Origin: a virus
Taxonomy: Duplodnaviria; Heunggongvirae; Uroviricota; Caudoviricetes
IMG/VR virus record: IMGVR_UViG_3300042889_001305
Direction: 5' to 3' (one strand)
Length of the DNA: 64,000 nucleotides
Notes under the pieces: generated by a model
What the model saw: only the letters and a program-made list of their open reading frames with translations
The model's database searches: none
Told to the model about the DNA's origin: nothing
Made by a program: the position numbers and the translations under genes
Shown: positions 4,646 to 60,341 of the stretch, in pieces
Layout: the number at the start of each line of letters is the position of its first letter
How positions within the stretch are numbered: the stretch's first letter is position 1

Positions 4646-7153
4646 TTAAAAAGAAAAGAATTTTTCTGCATTTTTTTGTTCACTCATTACTTCACCCCAA
4701 CCTAAGGCGTTATAGAAATCTTGTAACTTACCTTTTAATTCCGCTTCGAAGATTCGATTATGGTCGGTATAAGTTGTAATGAAATCAACTATTTCTTGTG
4801 GGTCATCATATCCTGTGAATCCCAATCCATCAATTCCTAATGGATTATTTTTAAGATAGACCCATTTGATTTTATCACCATCTTTCATTGGTGAATATTT
4901 GAATGGGGCTTTAAAGTGGGTTAAACAATCATTATATAGAATTGCTGCTTTAACGTGAGCAGGTGCACCTTTTTCCATATGGAATAATTGTCTTTTCTTT
5001 GGTGAATATTTTGAAAGGTTTTTAACTGCTGAGTTCTTTGCAATTTCATGTATCGGTCTACTTACCATACTCTTTTTAAACGCAAGAACAAATGCTGTTA
5101 ATTCCTCTTCAGTTTTACCTTTTAAGATATCTATTAGAACCGTCCCCATACAATCTTGAAACGCCTTAGGGAATGATGACCTTCTAACATCCAATCCCTT
5201 TACATCCAATCTATCTACGGCAACACCATTGTTTGAAATAATCCATTGTGCGTATCTCTTTTTTGCAATCCAAATACCTGCCCTAGCAACGTATTCCTTT
5301 TTAATTTCTAATCGGTGATTTTGAACATTGAAAAACTTATCTGAAAGAATATCATAAAACTTATTTAGATAATCTTGCATTTCACCTGCGATTCCATCTA
5401 CCAATACTGCAACTTCACTATCTGGCATTTCCTTCCAATTTGGATGACGGAAATCTAAAAGTGGTACTGCAGAAAAAAATACTGAATCCGTATCAATGTA
5501 AATGTTAGAATCCACATCAGTAGTACCTAACTCTTTATTGTATTTGATGTTTCCCATATTCGCAGAGTTCTTAATAACCGTCTGACCCGTAGTCGTAACT
5601 GCCTCCGCATTATCAACATCATAAAACCGAAAGGCAGGAAGACCAAGCACACCATAAAGAGAGTTAAGTAGAATTTTTTGAACCAACTGTCTTTTGCCGT
5701 AAAAGGCATATTTTTCTTTATTACCCTCCTGGCCGTACTTCTTTTCCAACTTTCTAAACTCCACCCTTTCATTGAACCAAATATCTAAAATTTCAGGAAT
5801 ACATCCTATTTTATCTTTACGATATAACACACCATTTGATGATATTGTTAAATCTGCCTCTTTAATATACTTTTCTAAATTATCACGTGAGATTTTATTA
5901 TCACCCATTTGATAGTAATCAACCTCCCTCTTCATATATTTCTGAACATCCCAATCTGCAATTTTAGCAACTTTGGTTTCAGGAGAAATGTTGATTGTCA
6001 TGATGATTGATGGATATAGAGATGTTAAATCCAAATCATATACCCAATCATACTTACCCACAATCGGGTCTTTTACATACGCACCGATAAACTTTTCTTG
6101 TTCATTATCTCTCAATGCCTGCATCATTTCCTTACGGTCTGATGGTTTATTCGGAGCAACTAATCCCTTACGTTTAAGGAAACATAACAATGCACCCTCT
6201 AAATACTTAGATGAATAAACGAAGTCCTCATAGGGAACGTGTCCTGCGTGGCAGATACCTCTACATAAATCAATGAATTGTAATTTCTTATCCAACTCCA
6301 CAACAATCTCAACATCGACTAAGTTATACTCAATGAACTTTTCAATGTCTTCATTAAATAAATCATCCAATGAACCTTGATATTCAATCTTACCCTTACC
6401 TAATTCAATCGTACCAATGGTATCTAATCGATAGTTAGGTAATTCGTTGTAGTTAAATTTCTTATAGAGTGATAGGTAATCCAAACAACTTACTCCTGCA
6501 AAGAACCATCTTTGACGATATGGAGAATAAAATGCTTGACCAATAGGTGATAACCTCTTTGCTTGAGATTCACCTAAGATGCGTTTCATTCGGTTGAATA
6601 GATACGGAATATCAAAATTATCAATGTTCCAACCAGTTAAAATATCCGGTGCAATACCTTCATAAAGTTCTAAGAACTTCATACACATATCCCTTTCATC
6701 TCTGAATGGTAGAATGATTGCCTTATCGGTTTTTCGTTCCACCATCTTACCTTTCTTATCCATAATCAATACCCAATATTGATTGGTGATATTATCTTGT
6801 AGACCAATAGCGGTAAGTTCGTTTTCAGCTTTTTCGGTATCAGGTAATCCACTTTCCATTTCCACCTCAATATCAAATGTCATTGTTACGATGGTATCTG
6901 ATGGAATATCGGAATCGGTATAAGTATCGACTAAAACACGTGTTGTTTCGGGTACATCCGATTCAAATAAATTTGGGTCATCCCCTTTGAATTTATAAAT
7001 CTTAGTTAATTTATCACCATAAATAGAACGGGCTTCACCTCTCTCTGCTCTTTCGTATGCGTATCTGGTGTATGGGAAGGTTCGGTAACCTAAATGAGAA
7101 TCCCAAAGGTGAATGAGATTTCGTTCCCTTTGATAATATATGTTTTTGTACAA
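4646..7153 (-). CDS. Family B DNA polymerase (T4 gp43-like)
   Basis: DLTSLYPSII (motif A, DxxSLYPS) and YIDTDSVFF (motif C, YGDTDS) are present. It also has exonuclease-like N-terminal blocks. 835 aa. The apparent start codon is TTG (7151-7153) with no in-frame ATG nearby. Confidence 0.9.
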   Translation of the reverse strand: MYKNIYYQRERNLIHLWDSHLGYRTFPYTRYAYERAERGEARSIYGDKLTKIYKFKGDDPNLFESDVPETTRVLVDTYTDSDIPSDTIVTMTFDIEVEMESGLPDTEKAENELTAIGLQDNITNQYWVLIMDKKGKMVERKTDKAIILPFRDERDMCMKFLELYEGIAPDILTGWNIDNFDIPYLFNRMKRILGESQAKRLSPIGQAFYSPYRQRWFFAGVSCLDYLSLYKKFNYNELPNYRLDTIGTIELGKGKIEYQGSLDDLFNEDIEKFIEYNLVDVEIVVELDKKLQFIDLCRGICHAGHVPYEDFVYSSKYLEGALLCFLKRKGLVAPNKPSDRKEMMQALRDNEQEKFIGAYVKDPIVGKYDWVYDLDLTSLYPSIIMTINISPETKVAKIADWDVQKYMKREVDYYQMGDNKISRDNLEKYIKEADLTISSNGVLYRKDKIGCIPEILDIWFNERVEFRKLEKKYGQEGNKEKYAFYGKRQLVQKILLNSLYGVLGLPAFRFYDVDNAEAVTTTGQTVIKNSANMGNIKYNKELGTTDVDSNIYIDTDSVFFSAVPLLDFRHPNWKEMPDSEVAVLVDGIAGEMQDYLNKFYDILSDKFFNVQNHRLEIKKEYVARAGIWIAKKRYAQWIISNNGVAVDRLDVKGLDVRRSSFPKAFQDCMGTVLIDILKGKTEEELTAFVLAFKKSMVSRPIHEIAKNSAVKNLSKYSPKKRQLFHMEKGAPAHVKAAILYNDCLTHFKAPFKYSPMKDGDKIKWVYLKNNPLGIDGLGFTGYDDPQEIVDFITTYTDHNRIFEAELKGKLQDFYNALGWGEVMSEQKNAEKFFSF

Positions 7154-7868: not shown

Positions 7869-8708
7869 TTAAAATTTGTAAATTCCACCAATATTCCAGA
7901 ATAGAATAGTTCCTTCGATTTGGTCTATGTTTTCTTCTAACCACTTCCATTGCTTTACATCCCAAAATTGGTTGCAAGGGAATGGGGTTTCGTAACCATC
8001 TAATCTATTCTCAAATAGATACTCTGATTTTCGTATATTTAGGGGAATTGGAATCCCACTCTTTTTAAGTGTTTTATTGATTGAACTAACCGATGATACA
8101 CATGTTGTCCAAATCTTCTTTTTAACTTGTGGAAAAAACTCTTTAAGTTCCTCTCTATAATATCCTCTTGCTAATCCTGCAAGAGTTACACCACTACCAG
8201 ATGATACTACTAAATTATCAAAATGGGCAAGGGGTTGAATTCTATCTGCAAGATAATCTTTATAGAAATCGTGGTCAAAAGCGTAAGGTAACATTTGCCA
8301 TCCCCTTTCTCTTGCATCTTTCTTTAACGAATTATACATAATCTGCATCATATTAGGTCTAATTGGATATAGGTTTGTTTTAGGATGCATTTCCTTAATC
8401 ATTCTCAAATATTCCTGTGATATCTTTTTAGAATCAGGGTGTGCTGCATAAAATTCAATTCCCAATTCCTCACATATTGCACTCAATGCCCATGCTGTCC
8501 AACTACCATCTACGGAAAGGTGAACCAGTGGTTTTGATTTATCAATATATTTTTTAACCAATTCAAATAATGCTGCTAATTTACCCCACGGCGGTAATAT
8601 CATACCATCGCCCATCAAGTCATCCCTCTTTACCCATACTTCTCTACCCTTAATGTGATAAAGTTCTAATGGGGTATCTTCGGTTAATCCTTTTAGTTTT
8701 AAATCCAT
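7869..8708 (-). CDS. PLP-dependent enzyme, fold type II (ACC deaminase / D-cysteine desulfhydrase family), shortened
   Basis: TPLELYHIKGREVWVKRDDLMGDGMILPPWGKLAALFEL parallels E. coli DcyD TPLEYL..GREIFIKRDD......GNKLRKLEFL, placing the PLP lysine in WGK. The glycine loop VVSSGSGVTLAGLA parallels VVASGSAGTHAGLA. It is 279 aa against about 330 for the family. Confidence 0.7.
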   Translation of the reverse strand: MDLKLKGLTEDTPLELYHIKGREVWVKRDDLMGDGMILPPWGKLAALFELVKKYIDKSKPLVHLSVDGSWTAWALSAICEELGIEFYAAHPDSKKISQEYLRMIKEMHPKTNLYPIRPNMMQIMYNSLKKDARERGWQMLPYAFDHDFYKDYLADRIQPLAHFDNLVVSSGSGVTLAGLARGYYREELKEFFPQVKKKIWTTCVSSVSSINKTLKKSGIPIPLNIRKSEYLFENRLDGYETPFPCNQFWDVKQWKWLEENIDQIEGTILFWNIGGIYKF

Positions 8709-11338: not shown

Positions 11339-12559
11339 TTATTTTATTTTTTTCCAAATCCAAATGGGTTCACCAAATGCATTATTTTTATTGAGTTCTG
11401 TTTTTTCTTTGAGTTCTTCTGCAAAATATTCAGATTTAGCATTTCCTGCACCGCCGGAATTAAACCTTTTTGTCATTTCCATTCCAATACAACCCATATA
11501 TTCTAATCCCTCTGATTTAATAAAGTCATTCATAGCATTTACAATATCAACATACCCCTTATCTGGTGCTGAAAATACATCTGCAATATTAACTGCTAAT
11601 AACCCACCCTTCTTTAAGGTAGGGATTATTTTTTTAATTGTTTTATGTAGGAAATTGGTATTCCAATCATCTATCTTTTTATAGCGTAAATAACTTTGAG
11701 TATCATGTGTGGAATACTTTTCAGTATTGAAGTATGGAGGTGAAGTGAAGATTGTATCAAAAAAGTTTTCATATTTGGAATAATCCACATCTTCTGCCGG
11801 TAACTTTATCAGTTCCACAGTTTTAGGATTCTCAAAAAACGTTTTGTGTTTCTGATAAAATTCTATTTGGTTTTCATAATTTGGGTGATTATCTAAATTA
11901 GGGTCTATACCAACATAATGTTTACCCGTTTCACTTGCAAAGAATCCACATAATCTATCTCCCCAACCTGCTGAAAAATCTAATATATTCTCACTTTGGA
12001 ATCTATCATAAAATGCTTTAGCAATTACAGGTTTGAATTGTGATGCCACATACTTTCGTAATGTAGTTGCCATCTTTAGTGTTTCCTTATTTACATCAGT
12101 TAGGACTTGTTCTAATGTGAAGAATGCCCGAACTATGGTTTTTATACCATTAACTGTCTGCCATGTCTTCCAACCTGATGGTGTTCTTGACCAATCTACC
12201 TTCCATCGATTTTCTATATGGAATGGGTTGGATGCGTTATTACCAACATTCGTTCTTTTAAAGTAATAATTACTACTATCAAATGTAAGTGGATATGCAG
12301 ATTCCCTTTCATTACGCGGAAACCATTCTCCCTCCACTAAAATATCCGGCCACCAAGTACCCTTTAACTTTTTATATGCATCAATCGTTTCTTGTTCTGT
12401 AATAATAGGAATAGGTGGTGGATAAGTATGTAATACTTCTGATAATGTTTCTACTATCTCTTCCTTTTCAAATGTATTTAGTATATGTTTCCACTCCTCC
12501 TTATCAATATTGATATAGGGGGTCATTCCATAAAACTTTTTGAAATATTCTTTTATCAT
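11339..12559 (-). CDS. SAM-dependent amino-methyltransferase-like protein (SPPY motif), paralog P2
   Basis: LDFSAGWGDRLCGFFA (motif I) and FTSPPYFNTEKY (motif IV). The N-terminus MIKEYFKKFYGMTPY matches the P3 N-terminus MYIEYFDKFYGMTPY. I therefore take the ATG at 12557-12559 rather than the track's TTG at 12667. AGGAAAA lies 12 nt upstream. Confidence 0.6.
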   Translation of the reverse strand: MIKEYFKKFYGMTPYINIDKEEWKHILNTFEKEEIVETLSEVLHTYPPPIPIITEQETIDAYKKLKGTWWPDILVEGEWFPRNERESAYPLTFDSSNYYFKRTNVGNNASNPFHIENRWKVDWSRTPSGWKTWQTVNGIKTIVRAFFTLEQVLTDVNKETLKMATTLRKYVASQFKPVIAKAFYDRFQSENILDFSAGWGDRLCGFFASETGKHYVGIDPNLDNHPNYENQIEFYQKHKTFFENPKTVELIKLPAEDVDYSKYENFFDTIFTSPPYFNTEKYSTHDTQSYLRYKKIDDWNTNFLHKTIKKIIPTLKKGGLLAVNIADVFSAPDKGYVDIVNAMNDFIKSEGLEYMGCIGMEMTKRFNSGGAGNAKSEYFAEELKEKTELNKNNAFGEPIWIWKKIK

Positions 12560-12563
12560 TAAA

Positions 12564-13796
12564 TTACATTTTCCTAAATACCCATACCGGTTCGCAGAAA
12601 GTTTTACCGGCATTTTCAATTGCCTTTTGCTTTTCTTCTTCGGAATATCGGTCTTCATCTCCCTCAATCATTGCACCTGCTCCAATTGAACCTGGCCTCT
12701 TAGCCATTTCCATACCTAAACATCCTTGATACTCTGCACCTTCTAATGTGGAAATAAAATCGTTCATTGGGTTAGTGATTTCCTGTTGACCTTTGCCATC
12801 ACCCTTTGAGGATGCATATACATCTGCGATATTAACTGCTAGATACCCACCCTTACGGATAGTAGGCCATACTTTTTCAATCGTTGCATGTAAGAATAAT
12901 TTATTCCATGCATCAATATTTTTATATCGAATCCAACTTTGAGTATCATCATATGAATATCTCTCTACGTTGAAATATGGTGGCGAACTGAATACAATAT
13001 CAAAGTAATCGGTATACTCACTATAATCCATATCCTCTGCGGGAGAACAATGAAAGGTTGCCCTCTTATCAGTTTCAAAAAAACCATTATTCTTTTTATA
13101 GAATTCGGCTTGTTTTTCGTATATTGGATGATTTTCTTTACGCGGGTCAATACCTACATAATGCTCACCATATTCTGATGCGAAAAATCCACATAATCTA
13201 TCACCCCATCCAGCAGAAATATCTAATACATTCTTTGCTTGAACGAAATCATAAAGTGCCTTTGCTACGTTTGGTTTGAACTGAGAACAAATATACTTTC
13301 TTAAAGATAGACAAGTTCTTAGGGTATTTTTACTAACCTCATCAAATTTTAGGGTATACATTCCACCGATTAGTGAAAACATAAAATCAGGGTTATTCCA
13401 AGTACGGAATGGGCCAGGCGATACTGTCCCATCTACGCTCCATCTATTTGCTTGTTGAAAATGATTCGATGCCCCATTACCAGTATTCAGCCTTCTTACA
13501 TATTGTTGTTTACCTTGAAATCCTAATGGATAACGGGTTTCAGATGCCTTACGAGGAAACCACTCACCTTCGGTTAGAAGTTCGTGATAACGAGTTCCTT
13601 TTAATTTAAGATACTCTTTTCTTGCATCCTCTTCAGAAATATCTGCATATGGTAATTCATATGTCATACATACTTTGGCAAGAGATTCCTTAACGTCTTC
13701 TCTTTGGTATGTTTTTTTAATGTGAGACCACTCTTCCTTACCGATATAAAGATATGGTGTCATACCATAAAATTTATCAAAATACTCTATATACAT
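12564..13796 (-). CDS. SAM-dependent amino-methyltransferase-like protein (SPPY motif), paralog P3
   Basis: LDISAGWGDRLCGFFA and FSSPPYFNVERY. It sits in tandem with P2 and is collinear with it over the whole length. ATG start, with a host-type promoter 36 nt upstream. Confidence 0.6.
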   Translation of the reverse strand: MYIEYFDKFYGMTPYLYIGKEEWSHIKKTYQREDVKESLAKVCMTYELPYADISEEDARKEYLKLKGTRYHELLTEGEWFPRKASETRYPLGFQGKQQYVRRLNTGNGASNHFQQANRWSVDGTVSPGPFRTWNNPDFMFSLIGGMYTLKFDEVSKNTLRTCLSLRKYICSQFKPNVAKALYDFVQAKNVLDISAGWGDRLCGFFASEYGEHYVGIDPRKENHPIYEKQAEFYKKNNGFFETDKRATFHCSPAEDMDYSEYTDYFDIVFSSPPYFNVERYSYDDTQSWIRYKNIDAWNKLFLHATIEKVWPTIRKGGYLAVNIADVYASSKGDGKGQQEITNPMNDFISTLEGAEYQGCLGMEMAKRPGSIGAGAMIEGDEDRYSEEEKQKAIENAGKTFCEPVWVFRKM

Positions 13797-14314: not shown

Positions 14315-16096
14315 TTATCCTTCACAACTTACACATTCAGGGTCCATTGCCTTTGTAGCAATATCGCCTCTTAATACGGATTCCGTTCTCATGTAGTACA
14401 ATGTCTTAACTCCTTGTTTCCAAGCCTCCATTGTTACCTGATTAATCCATTTAGGTTCTGCAATTGCAGGGAATGCTAAGTTTAGTGAAACTGATTGGTC
14501 TATATATTGTTGTCTAATACCCGCCTGTCTTACTAAATCTAATTGGTTAATTTCTTTGAATGTTTTAAATACATCCTTAACATTAAATGTTTTATGTTTG
14601 TCTTCAGGTAATACCTCTTCACAAAGAATTGCTTTACCATTTACAAAACACCAATTATCTAATTCTGCTATATCTTGAATAGAACCACCATCTTCTAAAA
14701 TCTTATCCCAAATTTCTTTGGTATTGATTCCCACTTTTTTAAGTAGTTTTTCTAATTCAGAATTTCTACGAATGAATGTTCCTTTTGAAGTTTGTTCCGT
14801 AAATACATTTGCTGCCCACGGCTCAATACCAGAACTTACATCTCCACTCAATTTAGAGTTAGAAACTGTTGGTGCGATTGCACGTAAGTGAGTATTACGG
14901 AAACCACTATCTCTACACCAAAGTGGTTCACCATATTCAGATGCCATATCTCTACTTGCTCTTTCAGATTCAATTTTCATTTGAGAAAATATCTTACGAG
15001 TTTCAAATTGAGCAGGCATTCCTTCAAATGGAATTCCTCTTTGTTGTAGGTAAGTATGCCATCCTAATACACCTAACCCCAATGCTCTACCTTTTTCTGC
15101 TGAACGAACTGCATTTTCAAATCCTTTCATATTCTTAGCCTTTTGTATGAATTCTGAAAGAACTCCATCTAAGAAATAAGTTGATGTGTAAATCAAATCC
15201 GTATCCTTCCACTCATCATATTTTGCTAAGTTTAAAGAACTTAGGCAACAAACGAATGAATGTGATTCATCGGTATGTAATACAATTTCAGAACAGATAT
15301 TAGTCATAAAAACTTTCAATCCATTTTGTTTGTACATAGATGGGTTTTGCTTATTAACATTACCCTTAAATAAGATATAAGGTTCACCTGTTGCTTTTCT
15401 TTTCTGAAGTAGTTTACTCCATTTTCTTCTAGCCTCAGATTCTCCATCTTGTAGTTTTCTCATAAACTTATCACCCACAACTGCACATTGATGAAGATTT
15501 AAACATTGACGATTAACATCACCCTTCGGTTCTCTAATCTCCAACCAATCTTCAAAATCTTTATGTTCGATGTTTAAGTTTACTGATGCTGCACCTCTTC
15601 TTACCGAACCTTGATTCGTTGCAAGAATAGTTGAGTCATATATTTTAGCAAATGGAACTACTCCATCAGATGTACCATTACCGGTAATCTTTGCACCTGC
15701 TGGTCTGATTTGGTTTATACCAATACCAACTCCACCACCATGCTTTGCTAATAGCATTAATTCTAAATTCTTTGAACCTATATCAAAAATGGAATCTGCT
15801 ACATCTATACCAAAACAACTAATAGGTAATCCCCTATCAGTACCTGTGTTTGATAATACCGGTGTAGCTAAACATAACCATCCTCTCCATATATAATCGA
15901 AAAATTTAGATGCTAGTTGCGGTTGGCCTAATCTCTGTGCTACTTTTGTAGACACTCTCCAATACGCATCTTTCGGTGTTTCTCCCTCAATCAAGTAACC
16001 CTTTGATATGGTTTTAACATATACTTCGGTATTACCCCACTCCGGAAAATCGACACCAAGTTCCCATCCAAATTCTTCACCTTGATTTTTTGCCAT
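14315..16096 (-). CDS. nrdA: Ribonucleoside-diphosphate reductase alpha subunit (class I, no ATP cone)
   Basis: NICSEI (NxCSEI active site), LAKHGGGVG, and the C-terminal pair of Cys CVSCEG. 593 aa. Confidence 0.9.
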   Translation of the reverse strand: MAKNQGEEFGWELGVDFPEWGNTEVYVKTISKGYLIEGETPKDAYWRVSTKVAQRLGQPQLASKFFDYIWRGWLCLATPVLSNTGTDRGLPISCFGIDVADSIFDIGSKNLELMLLAKHGGGVGIGINQIRPAGAKITGNGTSDGVVPFAKIYDSTILATNQGSVRRGAASVNLNIEHKDFEDWLEIREPKGDVNRQCLNLHQCAVVGDKFMRKLQDGESEARRKWSKLLQKRKATGEPYILFKGNVNKQNPSMYKQNGLKVFMTNICSEIVLHTDESHSFVCCLSSLNLAKYDEWKDTDLIYTSTYFLDGVLSEFIQKAKNMKGFENAVRSAEKGRALGLGVLGWHTYLQQRGIPFEGMPAQFETRKIFSQMKIESERASRDMASEYGEPLWCRDSGFRNTHLRAIAPTVSNSKLSGDVSSGIEPWAANVFTEQTSKGTFIRRNSELEKLLKKVGINTKEIWDKILEDGGSIQDIAELDNWCFVNGKAILCEEVLPEDKHKTFNVKDVFKTFKEINQLDLVRQAGIRQQYIDQSVSLNLAFPAIAEPKWINQVTMEAWKQGVKTLYYMRTESVLRGDIATKAMDPECVSCEG

Positions 16097-16109
16097 AATA
16101 TTGTTTTAT

Positions 16110-17123
16110 TTAAAATAAGTCATCCCAATTCTCACCCTCACCTGCTTTTGAATAATCAGTAGGTCTCATTGCGAAGAAATCCGTATGAGTTAAACCTCCA
16201 GTTAGGTGATAGAACCAATCCAATTCAGCTGCTTTCTTTTTATTGAATTCAAAATAATCATCACCGCCAGGCATTGGATTGTATCCTAACTCTGCAAGTT
16301 TCTCATTAATTCGTTTAATAATAAAGTGTTTTAGGTCATCTTTTTTCATATTCTCTAAATCACCCTGTTCAAACATCTTATCAATAAATCTATGTTCTAA
16401 TTCCATTATTAGTTTTGCTGCTTCATAAATTGATACTTTAGCATCTTCTAATAATTCTGGAAATTCATCACACATATGTCTGAATAATTGACATCCCATT
16501 CTACTATGTAGGGATTCATCTCTTACACTCCACTTCATTTGTTGTCCAATTCCTTTTAATTTATTTCTCATTTGGAATGAGTAAAGAACTGCAAATGATG
16601 AATAAAGGGATACACCCTCTGAAAATGCTGAGAATATTGCTAAACTTCTACCAACTTCTTTTCTTGCAATTGGGTTTGTTGCCAAATCCTCATGTGTCCA
16701 ATCCGAAGTAGTTTTTGTTAATAATTCAAACTTTTCTGCAATTGCAGGTTCGTGTAAAAATGCTTCAAAATCATCTAATCCTAAAGTTTCATTTAGATAC
16801 GAATATGCAATTGCGTGAATTGTTTCTTGAGAACCAAACATCATTGCCATCTGACGGATTTCATGTTTTGGAAACCATTGGGTAACCATATTAGTCCAAT
16901 AATCAGATACGGCACACTCAGTCTGAGCAAATCCTAAAAGGATGTTACCTACTAAATTCTTTTCAGAATCAGTTAGAGTTTCATTCCAATCCTTAATATC
17001 ACCTTGCATTGGGATTTCGGTATGTAACCAAAATGCCTGTGCTTGTTTTAACCATCCCTCAGTATAATATATCGGAAATTCAAAAGGTTTGAATGGAATT
17101 CTTTCAGTAAATAGTTTGCTCAT
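16110..17123 (-). CDS. nrdB: Ribonucleotide reductase beta subunit
   Basis: QETIHAIAYSY matches the ExxH iron ligands with the tyrosyl radical region. 337 aa. Adjacent to nrdA. Confidence 0.85.
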   Translation of the reverse strand: MSKLFTERIPFKPFEFPIYYTEGWLKQAQAFWLHTEIPMQGDIKDWNETLTDSEKNLVGNILLGFAQTECAVSDYWTNMVTQWFPKHEIRQMAMMFGSQETIHAIAYSYLNETLGLDDFEAFLHEPAIAEKFELLTKTTSDWTHEDLATNPIARKEVGRSLAIFSAFSEGVSLYSSFAVLYSFQMRNKLKGIGQQMKWSVRDESLHSRMGCQLFRHMCDEFPELLEDAKVSIYEAAKLIMELEHRFIDKMFEQGDLENMKKDDLKHFIIKRINEKLAELGYNPMPGGDDYFEFNKKKAAELDWFYHLTGGLTHTDFFAMRPTDYSKAGEGENWDDLF

Positions 17124-17136
17124 TTTGTAACTTTTT

Positions 17137-17307
17137 TTATTTGTTCTCTTCTACTGATAATTTTCTATAATCTGTAATAAGTTTTTTTAATTCTCCAATC
17201 GCTTTTCTTGCTCTTGATTTGGATGCTTTAGTTGCTCCGTTGTGTTCTGCTTCGAATTGAGTAAATAAATCCTTCATTTGTTCGAATAATTCAGTTGATG
17301 TTGCCAT
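17137..17307 (-). CDS. Small Lys/Arg-rich DNA-binding (histone H1/HU-like) protein, 56 aa
   Basis: Not in the ORF track because it is under 60 aa. The reverse complement translates to MATSTELFEQMKDLFTQFEAEHNGATKASKSRARKAIGELKKLITDYRKLSVEENK. The ATG is at 17305-17307 and the stop TAA at 17137-17139. Confidence 0.4.
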   Translation of the reverse strand: MATSTELFEQMKDLFTQFEAEHNGATKASKSRARKAIGELKKLITDYRKLSVEENK

Positions 17308-17460
17308 AAATTGTTTGTTTGTTAAATTGTTAAAAATTACTCCAACAAAATATCTTGTTGGTGAGTATAACTATTGTATATATGAAAAAAAGAAATGATT
17401 TTTTTTAATATTTTTTTTCTTTTTTATTATCCCATACTAACAAAAAGCTAACCCCTTTAT

Positions 17461-17505
17461 TATAATAGGGTTACCCCATATTTTCTACATACTTTTTATG
17501 CAGAA
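17461..17505. repeat. Direct repeat copy A (about 44 bp), just downstream of the DNA methyltransferase gene
   Basis: ttaccccatattttctacatactttttatgcagaagttgtttttt matches 18624-18667 with a single mismatch. Confidence 0.85.
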
Positions 17506-17513
17506 GTTGTTTT

Positions 17514-18620
17514 TTACTCAAAAAATTGATTTATTTTTTCTTTCACTTCCGGTTTCACTTCTACACGGTTTCCTTTTATTGGTTTGCTAACCGGTCTGTT
17601 TTTTTCATATTCAATTCTTGTTTTCGAAATTTCAAAGTATTCTTTTTCTCTTTCAATACCAATAAAATCAAAACCACCTCTAATTGCTGCTTTACCAGTA
17701 CTTCCACTTCCCATAAACGGGTCTAATATCGTTCCATCGTTTTTAGTAACCAAACGAATAAGGTATAGCATCAAATCCGTTGGTTTGACAGTCGGGTGTG
17801 TGTTATTACTTCCTTCGTTTCTATCACTCTTTGATGTTTTAGGACAGTAGAAAAATCTACTAGCACCACCAACATCTCCCAATCCACCTAAATTTGCAGC
17901 TTTAACATCTAATGCATAGTTTCCATATTTACCGTTTTTGCCCAATTCTCCCATTGATTTATCCCCACTACCTCCTGGTGATTTTGATACTCCACTTTGT
18001 TCATCCAATAACCTACCTGCTTCTTCATCAAAGATTACATTTGCTGGAAATCTGCCTATTGTATCTGCTATGTTAGCGTTACTACTATCATAACCATCAT
18101 CTAATCCTGTCAATGAGGGTCTACCATTTGCTTTTGATTTATAATCACCATTAAGTTCAATCCTGCAACCATCTATGTTTATCCCACCAGTTCCCCATTC
18201 TAAAACATTCTCTGCTACTGTGCTTTCACTCAAAGGTTTTCTTGCCATTACAATAGGTTCATGTGCCGGTTTAAGAGCAGTTCCCCAACCTTGCCATTCT
18301 TCTAACTTATGTCCTATGTTATGTGATTTAGGAAACCCTGAACCATATATCCACATAATCTGGTCTCTAATCTCAAACCCTGCATCTTCAATTCTTACAG
18401 CCATTCTGTGATAAGTTCTACTACCCGCGAATGAAAGGATATGACCTCCTGGTTTTAGAACACGAAGGCATTCTTCCCATATCTGCTGTGATGGAACATC
18501 ATAATCCCAGTGTTTGCCCATAAATGCAAGTCCATATGGCGGGTCAGTAACAATACTATCCACCGAATTATCATCTAATTCTTTAAGTTTATCTAAACAA
18601 TCTCCTAGTAATAATTTCAT
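17514..18620 (-). CDS. DNA methyltransferase (N6-adenine or N4-cytosine, DPPY type)
   Basis: SIVTDPPYGLAF (motif IV) near the N-terminus, and DPFMGSGSTGKAA (motif I) near the C-terminus. This is the beta-class order of the N6_N4_Mtase family. 368 aa. Confidence 0.85.
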   Translation of the reverse strand: MKLLLGDCLDKLKELDDNSVDSIVTDPPYGLAFMGKHWDYDVPSQQIWEECLRVLKPGGHILSFAGSRTYHRMAVRIEDAGFEIRDQIMWIYGSGFPKSHNIGHKLEEWQGWGTALKPAHEPIVMARKPLSESTVAENVLEWGTGGINIDGCRIELNGDYKSKANGRPSLTGLDDGYDSSNANIADTIGRFPANVIFDEEAGRLLDEQSGVSKSPGGSGDKSMGELGKNGKYGNYALDVKAANLGGLGDVGGASRFFYCPKTSKSDRNEGSNNTHPTVKPTDLMLYLIRLVTKNDGTILDPFMGSGSTGKAAIRGGFDFIGIEREKEYFEISKTRIEYEKNRPVSKPIKGNRVEVKPEVKEKINQFFE

Positions 18621-18623
18621 AAC

Positions 18624-18667
18624 TTATCCCATATTTTCTACATACTTTTTATGCAGAAGTTGTTTTT
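18624..18667. repeat. Direct repeat copy B, between the helicase stop and the methyltransferase start
   Basis: ttatcccatattttctacatactttttatgcagaagttgttttt. It overlaps the helicase stop codon (18624-18626) and ends 3 nt before the methyltransferase ATG. Confidence 0.85.
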
Positions 18668-19985
18668 GAACCATTTGTCCATTGTTAGATTCCTTTGAAG
18701 CAATGATTCCATCAGCGGAAGCTGCATCATATACTTCAATAAATCCTGTGTTTGTATCCATCTTACAAGGAAATGTAATTCCATCTGGTCCGAATCGGTT
18801 TTTCATAATGTGAGCCCTTGCAGTGTTATTCAATTTGTCTTTTGATTTTCTACTCCAACTCATAATGAAATCCGCATTCATAACCTTTGCATATGAATCT
18901 GCAATCTTATCTGCTTCAATTACATCTGAATCTATCGCAGAACGATTTGTTTGAGAAGCAGTCCATATTGGAATTCTCAATTCACCACCCATACCTCTAA
19001 GGTCAATGTAAACACCACCTTGTTCGGCATAAGTTGAATCCGTTTTATTTGAATGGGAAAGAAGTAAATCTGCGTAATCCACAATAATCAGGTCAGGTCG
19101 GTTTCCGGCTGCAATCATTTTTTCAATATGCATTTGCAACTTCTTAACACTTACCCCCTTCGGTGGATAATATTTAATAAGTAATTTTCCTTTTAATCCT
19201 TTGATTTTTGCTTTAACATCCTCTTTTCTATCTCTCAAATCTGCAGATGGGATATGAGTAAAGACTGTATCGTATCTTGCACCTACATAGTGTTCTGATA
19301 ACTCCATTGTATAATGAACTACACTTAATCCTGCTTTAACTGCCGATGCACCTAATGCGGTTAAAATCCATGTCTTACCAACACCAGATGGTGCAACTAC
19401 TACTCCTAATTCTCCTGGTCCTAATCCTCCATCCATTAAATCAGTAATGGGTTTCCAATCAGTTGGGACGGTATCTCTCTTTTCATCAGTTGAACGTGCA
19501 TCAAAATCTAAAACATAATCATGTCCTAAATCGTTTTCAACTCCAACCTTCATTGCCCTATCTACGAGGTCTTTGATTTTATCGTAACTTCCTGCCTTTA
19601 ATAAATCTACTGATTGTAGAATTACTTGTTTTAAGTTTTGATTTTTACAAAAGGATGTAAATTCCGTTTTAATGTAGGCTAAATCAGTTACGTTACCTAC
19701 TTGTGTGTAGATATGGCGTAATTGTTCTACAATCGTTGTTTGTAATCCTTTGTTATCTAATTTCGATAAACTTACTTTGAAAGCATCCATTGTGGGTGCT
19801 TGTCTATATTCAGTATGATAGTTAACAATTTCACTAACTATCCATTTGTTCGCATCCGATTCAAAAAATTTGGGTGTAACAATTTCTGATATTTGGTCTA
19901 AGAATTTATTATCGGTTAATAATGCAGATACAACTTTAGATTGGAAAGACTGTCCGTATTTCGATAAGTTGTCTATATCTTGCAT
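18624..19985 (-). CDS. Replicative DNA helicase (DnaB / T4 gp41-like)
   Basis: DnaB-like N-terminal domain. Walker A VVAPSGVGKTWILT. RecA-fold C-terminal region. 453 aa. Confidence 0.8.
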   Translation of the reverse strand: MQDIDNLSKYGQSFQSKVVSALLTDNKFLDQISEIVTPKFFESDANKWIVSEIVNYHTEYRQAPTMDAFKVSLSKLDNKGLQTTIVEQLRHIYTQVGNVTDLAYIKTEFTSFCKNQNLKQVILQSVDLLKAGSYDKIKDLVDRAMKVGVENDLGHDYVLDFDARSTDEKRDTVPTDWKPITDLMDGGLGPGELGVVVAPSGVGKTWILTALGASAVKAGLSVVHYTMELSEHYVGARYDTVFTHIPSADLRDRKEDVKAKIKGLKGKLLIKYYPPKGVSVKKLQMHIEKMIAAGNRPDLIIVDYADLLLSHSNKTDSTYAEQGGVYIDLRGMGGELRIPIWTASQTNRSAIDSDVIEADKIADSYAKVMNADFIMSWSRKSKDKLNNTARAHIMKNRFGPDGITFPCKMDTNTGFIEVYDAASADGIIASKESNNGQMVQKQLLHKKYVENMG

Positions 19986-20215
19986 TATTTATTTTTTTCC
20001 TTCTTTGTTTTTGTTTTAATTTCTTCAACTTGAGTTTCGACTTCTTCGGTAATCACTTCGGTCTTACTCTTTCCTTTGGATGATTTCCATTCGCTCTTTG
20101 GAACAAATTTCCAATGCCCACCTTTTACTCTCTCATCTGCCTCGATATCAGTCACTCTTTTAATTTCTCCTAACGTATAGGATTTTCCTTCCTTAATTGT
20201 TTTAATACACTTCAT
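19985..20215 (-). CDS. Hypothetical small protein with a Lys/Glu-rich tail
   Basis: 76 aa ORF with an ATG start, between the RNase H and helicase genes. Confidence 0.4.
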   Translation of the reverse strand: MKCIKTIKEGKSYTLGEIKRVTDIEADERVKGGHWKFVPKSEWKSSKGKSKTEVITEEVETQVEEIKTKTKKEKNK

Positions 20216-20237
20216 AGTTTTCCTCCATGTTTAATTG

Positions 20238-21281
20238 TTATTTTGTAATAATATTTCCAAATGTTGTTTTTAACCAATCATTGATATCACCAAAGTTGTT
20301 TACCGCTTTATACTTTAAACATACCTTCATAAAATCTAATTTATTTAATTGGTCGTTTGGTTCGTTAAATTTACTCAATATATTCATTTTTATAATACCT
20401 GATATATCGGGGTCATCTAATTGCATCAATTCTCTATTCATAAGAATCTGCTCTCTTGCAGAAAGGATATCATCGTATATCTTAATCTTACCTCTCTTTT
20501 CTTCACATAGGCGGAATAAGTCATCAACAGATAATTTAACATCCTCAGTCAGTTCTGGAAACCTCTTTACGAGGGTTTTTACACCACATCCATTAACTCC
20601 TGGTATGTTATCCGATTTATCACCATCCAATACCCTATATAAAAGTAGATTCTTTGATTCGATACCGAATTCTTCCTTAACAACGTTCCTATTATAGATT
20701 TTCTTTTTGGTGGGTGACCAAACGATGGTTTTTTCGTTAACCAATTGAAGGAAATCCTTATCAGTTGACATAACCACCGCTTGTTCATCCTCTTTAAGTA
20801 GTTGTGTAGTGATATAGGCCATAACATCATCTGCCTCTACACCATCATATATCATGTTGGTTACAGGTAGATAATTTAGCATTTCGTTCAACCAAACAAA
20901 TTGTCTTTTCATTGATTCGCGTTCATCCTCGATATTCATCATACCGGCATATTGACGATTCACTCTAAGTTTGTTTGGGTCTCTATCTGCCTTATAACCC
21001 GAAAATCTCTTTTTTCTACTTTGGGAGCCACCTTTACCATCGAAAACTACAATAACACGAGTCGGTTGAACCTGACGGATTGCGTAACCTATTGATTTTA
21101 AGACACCCGTTACACCACCTAAATGGTCGCCATCATCATTCATTGTGGGAATGGATGACCAGCAACGGATGAATGTATTTAATCCATCAATTATCAGAAC
21201 TCTAGAATTTCTAGTTTTAATAGAATTGCTAGTGTGTTCTTTTTCTACCGATTCTAAAATGTTTTTGTATATTGCTTTCAA
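20238..21281 (-). CDS. 5'-3' exonuclease / flap endonuclease (T4 RNase H-like)
   Basis: VLIIDGLNTFIR. Acidic clusters VVFDGKGG and EADDVMA are typical of FEN/53EXO metal sites. 347 aa. The apparent start is TTG. Confidence 0.8.
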   Translation of the reverse strand: MKAIYKNILESVEKEHTSNSIKTRNSRVLIIDGLNTFIRCWSSIPTMNDDGDHLGGVTGVLKSIGYAIRQVQPTRVIVVFDGKGGSQSRKKRFSGYKADRDPNKLRVNRQYAGMMNIEDERESMKRQFVWLNEMLNYLPVTNMIYDGVEADDVMAYITTQLLKEDEQAVVMSTDKDFLQLVNEKTIVWSPTKKKIYNRNVVKEEFGIESKNLLLYRVLDGDKSDNIPGVNGCGVKTLVKRFPELTEDVKLSVDDLFRLCEEKRGKIKIYDDILSAREQILMNRELMQLDDPDISGIIKMNILSKFNEPNDQLNKLDFMKVCLKYKAVNNFGDINDWLKTTFGNIITK

Positions 21282-51032: not shown

Positions 51033-52031
51033 CTATTTATTATAAATATCTAATAATGAATCAATCCACTTATTCTTATCTGTATATTTTTTAATCATAT
51101 AATTTTTTATAATATTAAACCAATATAATTTTTCAGAATAAGATAATGTAGTAATCTTTGTATAAATATCAAAAAATTCAGTTTTAGACGATGCTCGGTA
51201 TGGATATTCTAAATCTTTACACCAACTCGAATGTAGTATTGGTAATTTACCTTTATCAACCGCTTCAAATATTGAATATCCAAAGGGTTCTGATATAAAC
51301 GCAGAGTGTGATATACCCCAATCCATATCATAAAATGTATCTTTAAAATCTGGAGTATAATGATATAATTTTGATTTTGAAATATCTACTTTTACCCCAT
51401 TTTTCCAAAGTACATTAAATTCTTGAGAGTTAGTAAAAATAAGACTAGGAATTTTATCTAAATAGTGTGGATTTTTTCTACCTTCACTTCTTGCTGCAAA
51501 TCCTAACCTATTAGATTCGGATAGTGGTAAATTCCATTTAAATTCGTAAAAATTTGGTATATTAGTATTTTTATAAAGTATTTCGTATAATCCTACCCAT
51601 ATATTAGTTTCACACCAATCAGTAACCTCTTGTTCCCATTCTGAACTCATATAAGGATGATGTCCTATTGGTAAATCACTTCCAAATTGAGATTTTAGGA
51701 TGTGGTCTATTGAATTGTGTAATATATTTGAATGGATTTTATCTTTATTATCTACGATTGGTTTCATTGGAGTATAATGTCCATGTAGGATATTAATTCT
51801 TCGTGCACCTTTACATAGTTCTTCAAATTTTTGAATATCTTCACCATGCCAGTAAGTTTCTATTGGGAATTCGTAATCTTCGTGTCCTTTGGGTTTGTTT
51901 CTATGAATTAGTAGAATTGGTTTAATATCTAATTTAGGTGCTATTAATTCTATCCAAAGATTTACCCAAATATCAGAACCTGCATTGACCCACGGTCCAC
52001 CACCTGTGGTATAATAAACATCGTAAACCAT
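51033..52031 (-). CDS. GT-B fold glycosyltransferase, putative
   Basis: The C-terminal block AFISEPFGYSIFEAVDKGKLPIL matches the GT1/GT4 signature E-x-F-G-x4-E-A-x3-G-x-P-v-i. 332 aa. Confidence 0.5.
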   Translation of the reverse strand: MVYDVYYTTGGGPWVNAGSDIWVNLWIELIAPKLDIKPILLIHRNKPKGHEDYEFPIETYWHGEDIQKFEELCKGARRINILHGHYTPMKPIVDNKDKIHSNILHNSIDHILKSQFGSDLPIGHHPYMSSEWEQEVTDWCETNIWVGLYEILYKNTNIPNFYEFKWNLPLSESNRLGFAARSEGRKNPHYLDKIPSLIFTNSQEFNVLWKNGVKVDISKSKLYHYTPDFKDTFYDMDWGISHSAFISEPFGYSIFEAVDKGKLPILHSSWCKDLEYPYRASSKTEFFDIYTKITTLSYSEKLYWFNIIKNYMIKKYTDKNKWIDSLLDIYNK

Positions 52032-52036
52032 TTATA

Positions 52037-53911: not shown

Positions 53912-53977
53912 ATGTATGACTTAATAATTTCATTATATAATTATTTAACTAGAAACTCCTTATATAAGAAGTTTTGA

Positions 53978-53999
53978 ACTATAACCCGTGTGGGTTATA
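53978..53999. repeat. Perfect 9 bp hairpin (ctataaccc-gtgt-gggttatag) at the 3' end of fibre gene 53995-55605
   Basis: The inverted repeat is visible in the sequence and overlaps the stop codon region. No clean U-run follows on the minus strand. Confidence 0.4.
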
Positions 54000-55605: not shown

Positions 55606-55651
55606 CGCTTTTGATTTTTTTTTATTTTATTTACTAATAAATATATTTTTT

Positions 55652-60183: not shown

Positions 60184-60290
60184 TAATTGAAATTTCCTAT
60201 TTTATTTCCTATAAATATAGATATTTAATAAAATGTAAGTAAGATATAATAGTTATACCACCTATATAAGTATTGAAAAATAAAAAGATA

Positions 60291-60328: not shown

Positions 60329-60341
60329 TATTTATTCCGTA

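Follow-up and report, generated by a model that had tools for sequence, protein, structure and literature searches.

A 44-nt helicase-tail duplication around an orphan DNA methyltransferase gene in a phage genome: a probable insertion by short-homology joins

The methyltransferase (methylase) gene located behind the replicative helicase gene in the 64,000-nt stretch of phage DNA analysed here (the window) was probably inserted as a cassette by short-homology joins, with duplication of 44 nt of its target, and then spread by recombination. On comparison of related contigs, the two 44-nt direct repeats around it are a target duplication of the helicase 3' end made by the insertion itself, not pre-existing sites. 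The locus is a well-documented fresh case of a known kind of gene insertion and not a new regulatory element. Orphan methyltransferases are a main route by which phages escape host restriction. To our knowledge, the movement of methylases from one phage genome to another can seldom be followed at base resolution. The present locus records the empty progenitor allele, the donor-type junction, both short-homology joins, the 44-bp duplication and the hitch-hiked flank, and the record is completed by a second phage locus, where the same cassette has a 56-bp duplication of its own. The first-pass annotation had proposed that a gene cassette came or went by way of the repeats; the gain is borne out by the empty sites, the role of the repeats as pre-existing recombination sites is not.

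About 260 related loci were compared and labelled L001 onward. Loci were read for 80 of more than 550 helicase matches and 80 of more than 560 methylase matches, and the informative contigs were found by exact-protein look-up. A megablast search of positions 16000-21000 against 50,697 GenBank phages gave no match, and the closest cultured helicases were 42-48% identical at the amino acid level; there was therefore no annotated reference genome. A metagenome scan with the methylase gave nothing closer than 67% among the matches listed.

Repeats, genes and signals at the locus

Two copies of the 44-nt repeat TTAYCCCATATTTTCTACATACTTTTTATGCAGAAGTTGTTTTT were located at 17471-17514 and 18624-18667 (43/44 identical; start-to-start spacing 1153 nt). 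No third copy was detected in the 64-kb window on either strand at up to three mismatches, and 100 dinucleotide shuffles yielded no repeat match. The two-copy repeat with one mismatch that had been described earlier was confirmed as the only pair in the window, as was the position of one copy at the helicase stop, 3 nt before the methylase start, with GTT as the spacer. The other copy had been said to start 8 nt past the methylase stop; instead, it shares the final base of that TAA (17514), and the start given for the region, 17461, lies 10 nt too far out. As a further correction to the earlier description, the genes here all lie on the minus strand. The features are as follows.

18624..19985, minus strand: DnaB/gp41-like replicative helicase gene, 453 aa, intact (Pfam DnaB_C 2.5e-16; PHROG 19 DnaB-like helicase 1.5e-76)
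18628..18737, minus strand: helicase 3'-end tract of about 110 nt, identical to the empty-site relative L255; flank that travelled with the insertion
18624..18667, minus strand: upstream repeat copy, the functional helicase tail (last 13 codons and stop)
18624..18667, minus strand, letters of the upstream copy: AA AAA CAA CTT CTG CAT AAA AAG TAT GTA GAA AAT ATG GGA TAA
18636..18658, minus strand: 9-bp hairpin with 5-nt loop in the upstream copy, UUCUGCAUA AAAAG UAUGUAGAA
18621..18623, minus strand: spacer GTT, 3 nt, between helicase stop and methylase ATG; belongs to the imported cassette
17514..18620, minus strand: DPPY DNA methyltransferase gene, orphan, beta-class, 368 aa (Pfam N6_N4_Mtase 1.4e-36; PHROG 67)
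17471..17514, minus strand: downstream repeat copy, a non-coding helicase-tail relic ending in ATG GGG TAA
17483-17505, minus strand: identical hairpin in the downstream copy, with the same stem
17441..17473, minus strand: putative intrinsic terminator of the helicase transcript, stem TAACCC/GGGTTA, 13-nt loop, then GC-TTTTT
17137..17307, minus strand: Hc1-like (histone H1-like) gene, 56 aa (Pfam Hc1 6.1e-10), the conserved right-hand neighbour of an insertion hotspot

The helicase ORF ends with the upstream copy (codons KQLLHKKYVENMG followed by TAA). The downstream copy is out of frame with the methylase, has base 17514 in common with the methylase TAA and retains the ancestral join to the terminator-like hairpin. 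The sole difference between the copies is the A at 18627 (GGA) of the upstream copy, the context of the mismatch being GGA TAA GTT there versus GGG TAA CCC in the downstream copy.

The ORF at 17514-18620 had been called a DPPY methyltransferase, and was verified as an N6_N4 methyltransferase with an N-terminal DPPY motif. Against PF01555 it scored 126.9 bits (cut-off 26.7); motif IV DPPY occupies residues 26-29, motif I FMGSGST lies near residue 300, and the C-terminus reads QFFE*. With DPPY before motif I, a variable recognition region between the two, and CcrM, DpnA and M.RsrI as PDB relatives, the enzyme is, to judge from its motifs, a beta-class methyltransferase of the N6-adenine type. 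The centre of the gene (about nt 450-800) is mosaic in alignments with L086, L082 and L261, with a swapped target-recognition region. A second methylase in the window (11339-12667) is without a flanking repeat. [quoted passage not shown]

The palindrome CATA-N5-TATG that had been noted in each copy is present, but the account was incomplete, as it is the core of the 9-bp hairpin (dG -8.5 kcal/mol; z about -3.6 to -3.9 against shuffles). This hairpin cannot show compensatory covariation because the variable third codon positions all pair with invariant second positions. The terminator-like hairpin, the stem of which takes in the relic stop codon, was found directly 3' of the helicase stop in all empty-site relatives, with a paired change (TAACTC/GAGTTA) in L002; a simple terminator scan gave no call at 17441..17473 because the loop is longer than 8 nt. 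The Hc1 gene is situated downstream of the helicase in nearly all related loci. UvsX/RecA, gp32 and a 5'-3' exonuclease are encoded by the phage adjoining the locus.

Empty sites, junctions and related loci

The search for relatives with an empty site and a single repeat copy, suggested as a check in the first-pass annotation, was positive (L001-L007, L247-L254 and L255; at least 15 related contigs). Their layout runs from the helicase tail through the terminator-like hairpin to Hc1 without an insert and with an identical downstream flank. The helicase is 98-100% identical to that of the window at the amino acid level in L001-L007, and the protein is identical in L247-L254. The empty site of L255 carries exactly the tail variants of the window (AAC, CAA, CAA, CTG); its single copy and the flank are identical to those of the downstream copy, and 43 of 44 positions agree with the upstream copy. 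The CTG variant is common to both window copies and absent from all other empty sites read, and the 37-nt tail carrying it was matched in IMG/VR only by the relic copy of L086 and the empty site of L255. Both copies therefore derive from one recipient sequence. It is equally possible that L255 arose by excision and is not the progenitor.

Base 18627 is A in the window only and G in all empty sites of the site table. The junction GGA TAA GTT ATG (GGATAAGTTATGAAATT) is the standard helicase-to-methylase junction of L017, L019, L022, L119 and L141, which are more distant relatives of the window. As the lone mismatch falls within this donor-type junction, the repeat is a true target duplication. 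Homology at the left join amounts to 8-11 nt, and at the right join to an A-run only. The methylase end QFFE*/TTTTTTGAGTAA resembles the family ending FFE*, TTTGAGTAA, of L211 and L235, and the right join was therefore placed directly after the methylase stop; the origin of the 'GTA' in this join (GAGTA plus the 44-mer) was not traced. Exact-pattern scans of IMG/VR returned no contig for the left junction and only L086 for the right one. A donor in which an identical methylase immediately follows a helicase was not found. In the nearest cassettes (L081-L085, L086), the methylase is preceded by another one, so that an extra step, deletion of MTaseA between near-identical 5' ends, may be needed. 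In all other helicase loci, no duplicated helicase tail was seen except for a 23-nt partial copy in L008.

The flanks of the insertion are mosaic. The tract 18628..18737 has 3-6 synonymous differences from those empty-site relatives that are closer to the window further upstream, with the exception of L002. From L255 the window differs at 0 sites in the tract and at 11 in the next 110 nt upstream, from L001 at 6 in the tract and 2 upstream, and from L002 at 10 in the tract and 9 upstream. These mosaic flanks show the spread of the insertion by homologous recombination.

A nearly identical methylase cassette was present at a second phage locus in sister samples. There (L081-L084), a two-methylase cassette lies between the copies of a perfect 56-nt repeat, which duplicates the start of the gene on its downstream side; protein search gave a distant empty counterpart of this locus (L260), and the IMG/VR pattern scan returned no exact empty site for the L082-type locus. 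In L086, the downstream copy 3' of the methylase is identical to that of the window and the right junction is the same, but the upstream neighbour differs (MTaseA). The L086 methylase allele, for which a single 4.2-kb contig was found, matches that of L261 exactly as far as ...CAATTTTTTGA, after which L261 enters a different locus. In L120, a 23-nt duplication of the upstream gene tail surrounds a related methylase. Among about 100 distinct methylase loci, flanking duplications were limited to three contexts, and most cassettes are without them.

Origin of the duplication and alternative explanations

The ancestral order would have been helicase, stop, terminator-like hairpin, about 160 nt and Hc1, in the genome of a large, uncultured, aquatic T4-like phage. 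A 1,109-bp cassette (GTT plus methylase ORF) would have been contributed by a co-infecting relative with a native helicase-TAA-GTT-ATG-methylase arrangement. The left join would fall within (GAA)AATATGGG, in the last few bases of the helicase gene, and the right join would lead from just past the methylase stop to an A-run 44 nt upstream of the recipient helicase stop. Because the return point lies upstream of the departure point, 44 nt of the recipient would have been used twice. Such a duplication would be yielded by template switching or by a double illegitimate join during recombination-dependent replication; either template-switch or break-join enzymology may have operated. The event itself would have taken place in an L255-like genome, and the filled allele, accompanied by the right copy and some 110 nt of flank on the left, would have entered the L001-like background of the window via ordinary homologous recombination. 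The upstream copy leaves the helicase intact and the methylase 3 nt behind it in the operon, so that the methylase is presumably expressed together with the replication genes and may protect the phage from host restriction. The downstream copy would be a silent relic that preserves the original tail-terminator junction. The repeat pair should now permit precise loss of the methylase by recombination between the copies, and reversible gain and loss of the methylation phenotype is predicted in the natural phage population.

Integration of a mini-circle (44-nt tail, GTT and methylase) into the helicase tail by a single homologous crossover, comparable to PeSL shuffling, was considered unlikely. 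It would give tail-methylase-tail exactly, with both neighbours intact, and the reverse reaction would free a circle that could be passed on in co-infection; the formation and packaging of such circles via short direct repeats is reported for T4-type phages (Arbiol et al. 2010, PMC2839356), this phage has a UvsX/RecA homologue, and the filled allele has moved between backgrounds. However, the origin of the first tail-methylase-tail is left unexplained. The approximately 110 nt of L255-like sequence upstream of the repeat exceed the 44-nt homology of a circle and cannot stem from it; spread therefore needed longer flanks. Donor-type base 18627 and GTT place the origin of the left junction in a helicase-methylase genome, and L086 combines the right junction with a different left neighbour. 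Neither a circle nor a tandem junction was found in the assembled IMG/VR contigs, although assemblies are a poor test of this. Out-of-register repair off a donor, copying the methylase after a free-standing HNH-type homing endonuclease of a co-infecting relative had cut near the helicase 3' end, was rated as quite unlikely. The L255-like tract would then be a co-conversion tract, and the flank marker cluster did move with the insertion, but ordinary homologous recombination equally predicts co-transfer of the flank. The locus is hypervariable, in L008 and L015 the helicase has lost its stop and is followed by small cysteine-rich ORFs, and a 191-aa ORF at the hotspot in L022 has an HNH match. 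That match, the only one of its kind, is weak (E 0.008, below the Pfam cut-off). No endonuclease gene lies in or adjoining the insert of the window, and no cleavage site is known.

A dedicated transposition-like insertion, in which an enzyme nicks the tail hairpin region at positions staggered by tens of bases and gap filling creates the duplication, appears very unlikely. Long duplications (44, 56 and 23 nt) occur in three contexts around related methylase cassettes, the 44-nt one is roughly centred on the stable hairpin, and the cassette ends are sharply defined. These lengths vary widely, however, the three targets have no common motif beyond AT-rich microhomology, and most cassettes of the family are without a flanking duplication. 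No inverted repeat pairs the insert ends, and no transposase, recombinase or integrase gene was found in or beside the insert; with regard to integrase/att integration, the repeats at the two loci of the cassette are unrelated. The duplicated transcription or translation signal proposed in the first-pass annotation, by which the repeat would serve in regulation as a promoter, 5'-UTR or ribosome-binding module, each copy driving or terminating a transcript, was found to be highly improbable. The upstream copy and the methylase ATG are 3 nt apart, and a sigma-70-like match (10/12) has its -35 box, TAGAAA, inside the downstream copy and its -10 box, TATAAT, just past it, but such promoter-like matches were no commoner than in shuffles (17 found versus 14.5 expected). 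There are only two copies in 64 kb, one of which is the plain coding end of the helicase, and the helicase-tail copy is conserved in hundreds of relatives for this reason. Relatives with other cargo at the site have no second copy, and the same repeat around different genes, named beforehand as the refuting case, was not found among the about 260 related loci. Since the same cassette is flanked elsewhere by a different, locus-derived 56-nt repeat, the repeat belongs to the recipient site and not to the cassette. That the assembly had joined two phage populations via the common 44-mer is scarcely credible. The window is a metagenome contig (identical to JGI 3300042445 Ga0453054_0000024), and related contigs (L086, L252-L254) end close to the helicase tail, but the left junction (GGATAAGTTATG) and the right junction (GAGTA plus the 44-mer) are unique, and a mis-join at the repeat creates neither of them. 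The right junction was assembled independently in L086, and at least four metagenome samples gave the whole two-copy structure independently and identically, so that it is no artefact of assembly.

Known insertion systems and the wider cassette family

Insertion with long target duplication has been described for restriction-modification genes of bacterial genomes (Nobusato et al. 2000; Furuta, Abe & Kobayashi 2010, PMC2853133), and is defined by repeats of more than 30 bp, an insert of less than 20 kb and the presence of both R and M genes (PMC2853133). At the present locus, the insert is absent from relatives with both flanks aligned (L001-L007, L247-L254, L255), both repeats correspond to one single-copy target (L255), the duplication comprises 44 nt, and the 1,109-nt insert consists of the methylase ORF only, without mobility genes. 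As in the published class, a modification gene is missing from a close relative, the repeats match a single-copy empty target, and there is no transposase or integrase. In published examples, the duplication, of 46-47 bp, overlaps an adjacent gene at its 3' end (PMC2853133), as the present 44 nt do. The class is known from bacterial chromosomes and requires R and M, whereas the present case is a lytic-type T4-like phage with M only, an orphan methylase without a nuclease between the helicase and the Hc1-like gene; here, the donor-type junction sequence and the short homologies point to phage-phage recombination. Double-strand breakage by restriction enzymes was suggested as the common cause by the authors who described the class (PMC2853133). 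The present locus extends long-target-duplication insertion to a lone methylase in a virus, and the duplication around it therefore argues for a general short-homology recombination or template-switch route that is not nuclease-dependent.

PeSL shuffling and mini-circles have been described in T4-type phages (Arbiol et al. 2010, PMC2839356; Comeau et al. 2014, PMC4122927). Common to these and the present locus are a non-essential gene in a variable T4-like region and short direct repeats that allow gain and loss, possibly as circles via phage recombination. PeSLs are dispersed, multi-copy cassettes of a promoter and a terminator, whereas the present repeat exists in two copies, is a helicase coding end and was made by the insertion rather than pre-existing. 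The PeSL composite of a strong sigma-70-like early promoter and a terminator in many copies was not found; the repeat contains only a weak -35-like hexamer. In homology-facilitated illegitimate recombination of bacteria (e.g. PMC3240628), similarity guides one end and microhomology the other, and small duplications or deletions of the recipient are common. To that extent, the entry of foreign DNA with one guided end and one microhomology join is alike, but the bacterial process as described involves transformation or conjugation and anchors of hundreds of bases, in contrast to a left homology of 8-11 nt and co-infection here. Morons and hyperplastic-region indels resemble the insertion in being one accessory gene between two conserved genes at a recurrent hotspot. 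Classical morons carry their own promoter and terminator. In contrast, the present cassette is an ORF with a 3-nt leader and no trailer, which is probably read from the helicase operon, and it is accompanied by a target duplication.

The gap between helicase and Hc1 is a hotspot of about 93 to 3,076 nt, with MTaseA, MTaseB, Mom and others as cargo. The methylase and Mom genes show unusual nucleotide-level conservation at the 5' end (ATGAAATTATTATTAGGAGATTG...) and have a common 3' end (...TTTTTTGA/G). It is possible, though quite tentative, that the methylase and Mom anti-restriction genes of these aquatic T4-like phages constitute a recombinase-free cassette system based on handle-swapping, microhomology insertion and homologous spread. 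The conserved 5' and common 3' ends may then act as recombination handles by which cassettes are swapped and stacked; new sites would be colonised via microhomology-guided insertion, possibly favoured by hairpins such as that of the helicase tail, which would leave target duplications of 23-56 bp, and each new insertion would then spread through the phage population by homologous recombination.

The case for retention of the downstream copy as the supplier of a -35 box was weakened, the promoter match being ordinary for this AT-rich DNA. Relatives with other cargo are without the downstream copy, yet a conserved TATA(C/A)T...hairpin element nearer to Hc1 is retained in them.

The repeat pair and its gene context

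The 44-nt sequence TTAYCCCATATTTTCTACATACTTTTTATGCAGAAGTTGTTTTT was found at 17471-17514 and 18624-18667, with 43 of 44 positions identical and a spacing of 1153 nt. These were the only two matches to the 44-mer when both strands of the 64-kb window were searched with up to three mismatches, and 100 dinucleotide-preserving shuffles contained none. A direct-repeat search of the whole window yielded nothing comparable, all other repeats being coding and located at 52-63 kb. That part (52000-63100) is densely filled with families of diverged direct repeats, their units about 21-300 nt long and present in many copies, within long minus-strand coding sequence; presumably they are repeated domains of large structural or fibre proteins. 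The two near-identical copies with one mismatch that the first-pass annotation described as bracketing a methylase gene were thus confirmed as the only such pair of the window. The downstream copy, which had been placed 8 nt past the methylase stop codon, shares the final base of that stop codon (TAA). The short palindrome reported within the repeat forms the core of a 9-bp hairpin (dG -8.5 kcal/mol, z about -3.6 to -3.9). Every gene in the repeat region is encoded on the minus strand according to the ORF list. The locus comprises the following features:

18624-18667, minus strand: upstream copy; final 13 codons and stop codon of a 453-aa DnaB/gp41-like replicative helicase
17514-18620, minus strand: methylase ORF between the copies, 368 aa; beta-class DPPY methyltransferase (Pfam N6_N4_Mtase, 1.4e-36)
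17471-17514, minus strand: downstream copy; non-coding, out of frame with the methylase

On the minus strand, the left part reads ...GGA CAA ATG GTT C[AA AAA CAA CTT CTG CAT AAA AAG TAT GTA GAA AAT ATG GGA TAA] GTT ATG AAA TTA... (methylase, 368 aa), with the upstream copy in brackets. The right part reads ... CAA TTT TTT GAG TA[A AAAACAACTTCTGCATAAAAAGTATGTAGAAAATATGGGGTAA] CCCTATTATAATAAAGGGGTTAGCTTTTTG ..., with the downstream copy in brackets. Solved relatives of the methylase are CcrM, DpnA and M.RsrI. Behind the downstream copy, the order is a terminator-like hairpin and its T-run, a spacer of about 160 nt, a 56-aa Hc1-like gene, and the small and large subunits of ribonucleotide reductase. 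A 5'-3' exonuclease (RNase H-like), a RecA/UvsX homologue and gp32 are located on the upstream side. Together these genes make up the replication and recombination module of a T4-like phage. No cultured close relative was found (no megablast match; best helicase identity 42-48%). Related contigs reach 266-288 kb, and a 131.8-kb JGI metagenome contig contains the window as an identical stretch.

The Hc1-like gene (17137-17307, 56 aa) matches the chlamydial histone H1-like Hc1 family (Pfam 6.1e-10). Throughout this phage group it keeps its place beside the ribonucleotide reductase genes; histone-like proteins are unusual in phage replication modules. Just upstream of its start, after a conserved TATA(C/A)TCACC motif, a hairpin is found at 17342-17361 (minus strand) and at the equivalent position in the related contigs L016, L017 and L101. 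The structure is kept with differing stems (window CCAACAA/TTGTTGG, L016 CTACCT/AGGTAG, L101 CTACCA/TGGTAG); it possibly forms a stem-loop at the 5' end of the Hc1 transcript or acts as a terminator. About 5 kb from the repeat locus, the window has another ORF for a methylase of the N6_N4 type (11339-12667, minus strand). In contigs that are otherwise nearly the same, this ORF differs in length (L242, 439 aa; L244, 406 aa; L247, 424 aa), and no flanking repeat was found around it.

Empty and filled sites and the origin of each copy

The check for an empty site, with a single repeat copy and no insert, was positive in two sets of related phages. Seven contigs (L001-L007), among 80 viral contigs with this helicase out of 550+ matches, encode a helicase with 98-100% amino acid identity and carry a single tail copy, with the hairpin, spacer and Hc1 gene of the window immediately behind it. 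An exact-protein look-up recovered the identical helicase in 14 contigs, six of them filled with the identical two-copy arrangement and eight empty (L247-L254). As the filled arrangement was recovered from four different samples in an exact methylase look-up, an assembly artefact was excluded.

The sole mismatch sets GGA in the upstream copy against GGG, the triplet of the downstream copy and of every empty site. In the more distant relatives L017, L019, L022, L119 and L141, which carry a methylase at the same position and helicases of 83-87% amino acid identity, the usual helicase-to-methylase junction is GGA-TAA-GTT-ATG-AAATT; the A at 18627 and the GTT were therefore assigned to the cassette. 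Left of 18627 the upstream copy is recipient-type (GTA GAA AAT versus GTT GAG AAT in these donors), which places the left join inside the shared (GAA)AATATGGG. The methylase ends in QFFE* (TTTTTTGAGTAA). Because L211 and L235 share the FFE* ending (TTTGAGTAA), the right join was placed immediately past the methylase stop codon, in the A-run opening the repeat.

At a position where CTA is nearly universal among relatives, both copies contain CTG. In IMG/VR, the 37-nt tail including CTG had only two exact matches, the relic copy of L086 and the empty site L255. The tail of L255 equals that of the window exactly (AAC..CAA..CAA AAA CAA CTT CTG), with GGG TAA and the hairpin. The shared CTG and the L255 match derive both copies from one recipient sequence, so that the repeat is, on this comparison, a genuine target duplication.

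In the variable-site table, the window and L255 are identical over 18628-18737, the last 110 nt or so of the helicase, and differ at 11 sites in the next 110 nt upstream. The reverse applies to L001, with 6 differences in the tail and 2 upstream. From 17410 onward, downstream of the insertion, the window is of the L001/L247 type and L255 differs. These mosaic flanks indicate that the insertion arose in an L255-like genome and that the filled allele was later transferred with short flanks into the window's background by homologous recombination. The L255 sequence is what either a progenitor or a revertant would show.

The cassette in other contexts

L086 has the same right junction as the window (methylase end, TA, 44-nt relic, hairpin, Hc1) with nearly identical DNA. 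The central region of its methylase (about nt 450-800) differs, and upstream lies the end of a further methylase, MTaseA (...DKYKFFV*, ATGA overlap), as in L017, L018, L081-L085 and L119. In L261, from the sister sample of L086, the methylase is identical to that of L086 through ...CAATTTTTTGA and then runs into a different locus. At this other locus, also present in L081-L084, the neighbours are GHMP kinase, NifU, an Fe-S assembly protein and Cpn60, with no helicase. There, the MTaseA-MTaseB pair lies between perfect 56-nt direct repeats that are the 5' end of the downstream 63-aa gene; in the distant relative L260 both flanking genes are adjacent, without insert. In a third context (L120), a related methylase lies between two copies (22/23) of the tail and stop codon of the upstream ORF, and the left junction likewise reads TAAAGTTATATG. 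Homologies in the three contexts amount to 8-11, 6 and 8 nt at the left junction and 0-6 nt at the right. The same cassette has been inserted independently elsewhere with a different duplication.

In L207 a related methylase lies between 400-nt direct repeats (398/400; 5338-5737 and 8258-8657, spacing 2,920 nt), far longer than the other duplications. These 400-nt repeats possibly represent coding sequence duplicated from a gene next to the methylase. In L217 the 27-nt intergenic GCAAAACyTTATATACAAAAATTCTAA occurs at 5008-5034 and 6108-6134, either side of another methylase and just before the ATG of the next gene. It could be a duplicated promoter or leader and would be more PeSL-like than the repeat of the window.

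The helicase-to-Hc1 interval is a hotspot, with distance classes of about 93, 160-175, 1,140-1,230, 2,230 and 2,750-3,076 nt. Cargo in the larger classes includes the methylases MTaseA and MTaseB as well as a further methylase-like protein, a DNA-modification protein of the Mom family, a weakly HNH-like ORF and unknown proteins. No duplicated helicase tail was found at the other helicase loci except a 23-nt partial copy in L008 (AAAATATGTAGAAAATtTGGG). In L008 (7339-7424) and L015 (6030-6105) the helicase stop codon is lost (ATGGGA|GTTTT...) and the protein extended by 14-22 mostly hydrophobic residues; the partial copy follows 42 nt further on in L008, and after it a small cysteine-rich ORF. 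This arrangement possibly reflects a separate insertion at that site. In L022 (7359-8029), between helicase and MTaseB, an MTaseA remnant joins its first and last bases (ATGAAATTCTTATAAGTTTTTT), and MTaseA's place is taken by a 191-aa ORF that weakly matches HNH endonucleases (E 0.008).

Proposed route of insertion and methylase gene mosaicism

Contig comparison shows an ORF-sized cassette inserted between the helicase stop codon and the downstream hairpin, with 44 nt of recipient sequence duplicated, a donor-type left junction and short homologies at both joins. In a mixed infection, a recipient strand would switch to, or join, the donor template at AATATGGG, copy the methylase, and re-enter a recipient molecule 44 nt before its departure point, in the A-run. 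This could proceed by template switching or a double illegitimate join within recombination-dependent replication, which is typical of T4-like phages. Re-entry upstream of the departure point would duplicate the target; re-entry downstream would delete the helicase end and the lineage would be lost, so that survivors would be biased towards duplications. With only 3 nt from the helicase stop codon to the ATG and no terminator before the methylase, the latter is probably co-transcribed with the replication genes and would shield the DNA of progeny phages from host restriction. Given a UvsX homologue, the phage should be able to lose the methylase precisely through its two 44-bp repeats, which are 1.15 kb apart.

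A mini-circle integrating via one crossover would yield the same tail-methylase-tail product, but can explain neither the donor-type base at the junction, nor the 110-nt tract of flank outside the repeat, nor how the arrangement first arose, and no circle junction was found in the assembled IMG/VR contigs. Endonuclease-triggered repair is possible, its basis being the weak HNH match of a single relative. A transposition-like mechanism of its own kind is improbable given the varying duplication lengths and the lack of inverted repeats and of a recombinase. The proposal that the repeat is a duplicated transcription/translation signal was rejected: the element has just two copies in the 64-kb window, relatives with other cargo have no second copy, and promoter-like matches are no commoner than in shuffles.

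Among described phenomena, insertion with long target duplication of restriction-modification genes in bacterial genomes matches best (PMC2853133). Such genes are absent from sister strains, are flanked by duplications of 46-47 bp and longer that often overlap a gene 3' end, and lack mobility genes (PMC2853133). Four of its five operational criteria were found at the locus; the presence of both R and M genes was not, and the setting is a phage instead of a bacterial genome. Breakage by the restriction enzyme, suggested by the authors as a common cause (PMC2853133), cannot apply to the nuclease-free cassette of the window. The closest phage analogue in outcome is PeSL-mediated shuffling in T4-type phages (PMC2839356), although the repeat itself is not a PeSL. 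Limited literature searches found no paper describing such an insertion for phage-borne orphan methylases. The locus is considered a real, cleanly resolved insertion scar and not a new kind of element. Its value is an unusually complete natural record of progenitor, donor junction, duplication, spread and second locus. The locus also hints at a shared short-homology route by which anti-restriction cassettes are moved in these phages.

The methylase centre, its target-recognition part (about nt 450-800, window 17700-18170), is a patchwork among the window, L086, L082 and L261. One sub-segment is common to the window and L082, unlike L086 and L261, and the flanking gene parts share 95-100% DNA identity, which suggests a swap of specificity domains between otherwise identical genes. 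The opening 40 nt or so (ATGAAATTATTATTAGGAGATTGTTTAGATAAACT..., window 18581-18620) are conserved at synonymous sites in 78 distinct methylase genes of the fetched loci, with a third-position pairwise identity of 0.78 for codons 2-14 versus 0.56 and 0.53 in the next two blocks. In tandem methylase arrays, 5' ends of 45-77 nt form near-identical direct repeats (L049, L087, L127, L145, L168, L175, L195). The conserved 5' end possibly serves as a handle for recombination, or is constrained by translation initiation.

The L082-type methylase has extra C-terminal residues (FFDLKN*) matching the tail of the Mom-family gene after MTaseB in L017-type genomes (NEFFDFKN*), which indicates a fusion or deletion at TTTTTTGA; it carries the last codons of the Mom gene. 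Non-homologous cassette genes have a common C-terminal FF(G/E/D), namely MTaseA ...KYKFFV*, MTaseB ...NQFFG*/E* and Mom-family ...NKFFG* or ...NEFFDFKN*. The ending is encoded by ...TTTTTTG(G/A)... and was seen in L017 (3470-3500 and 4270-4300), L016, L015 and L082 (5420-5445). This shared 3' end looks like a recurrent recombination point.
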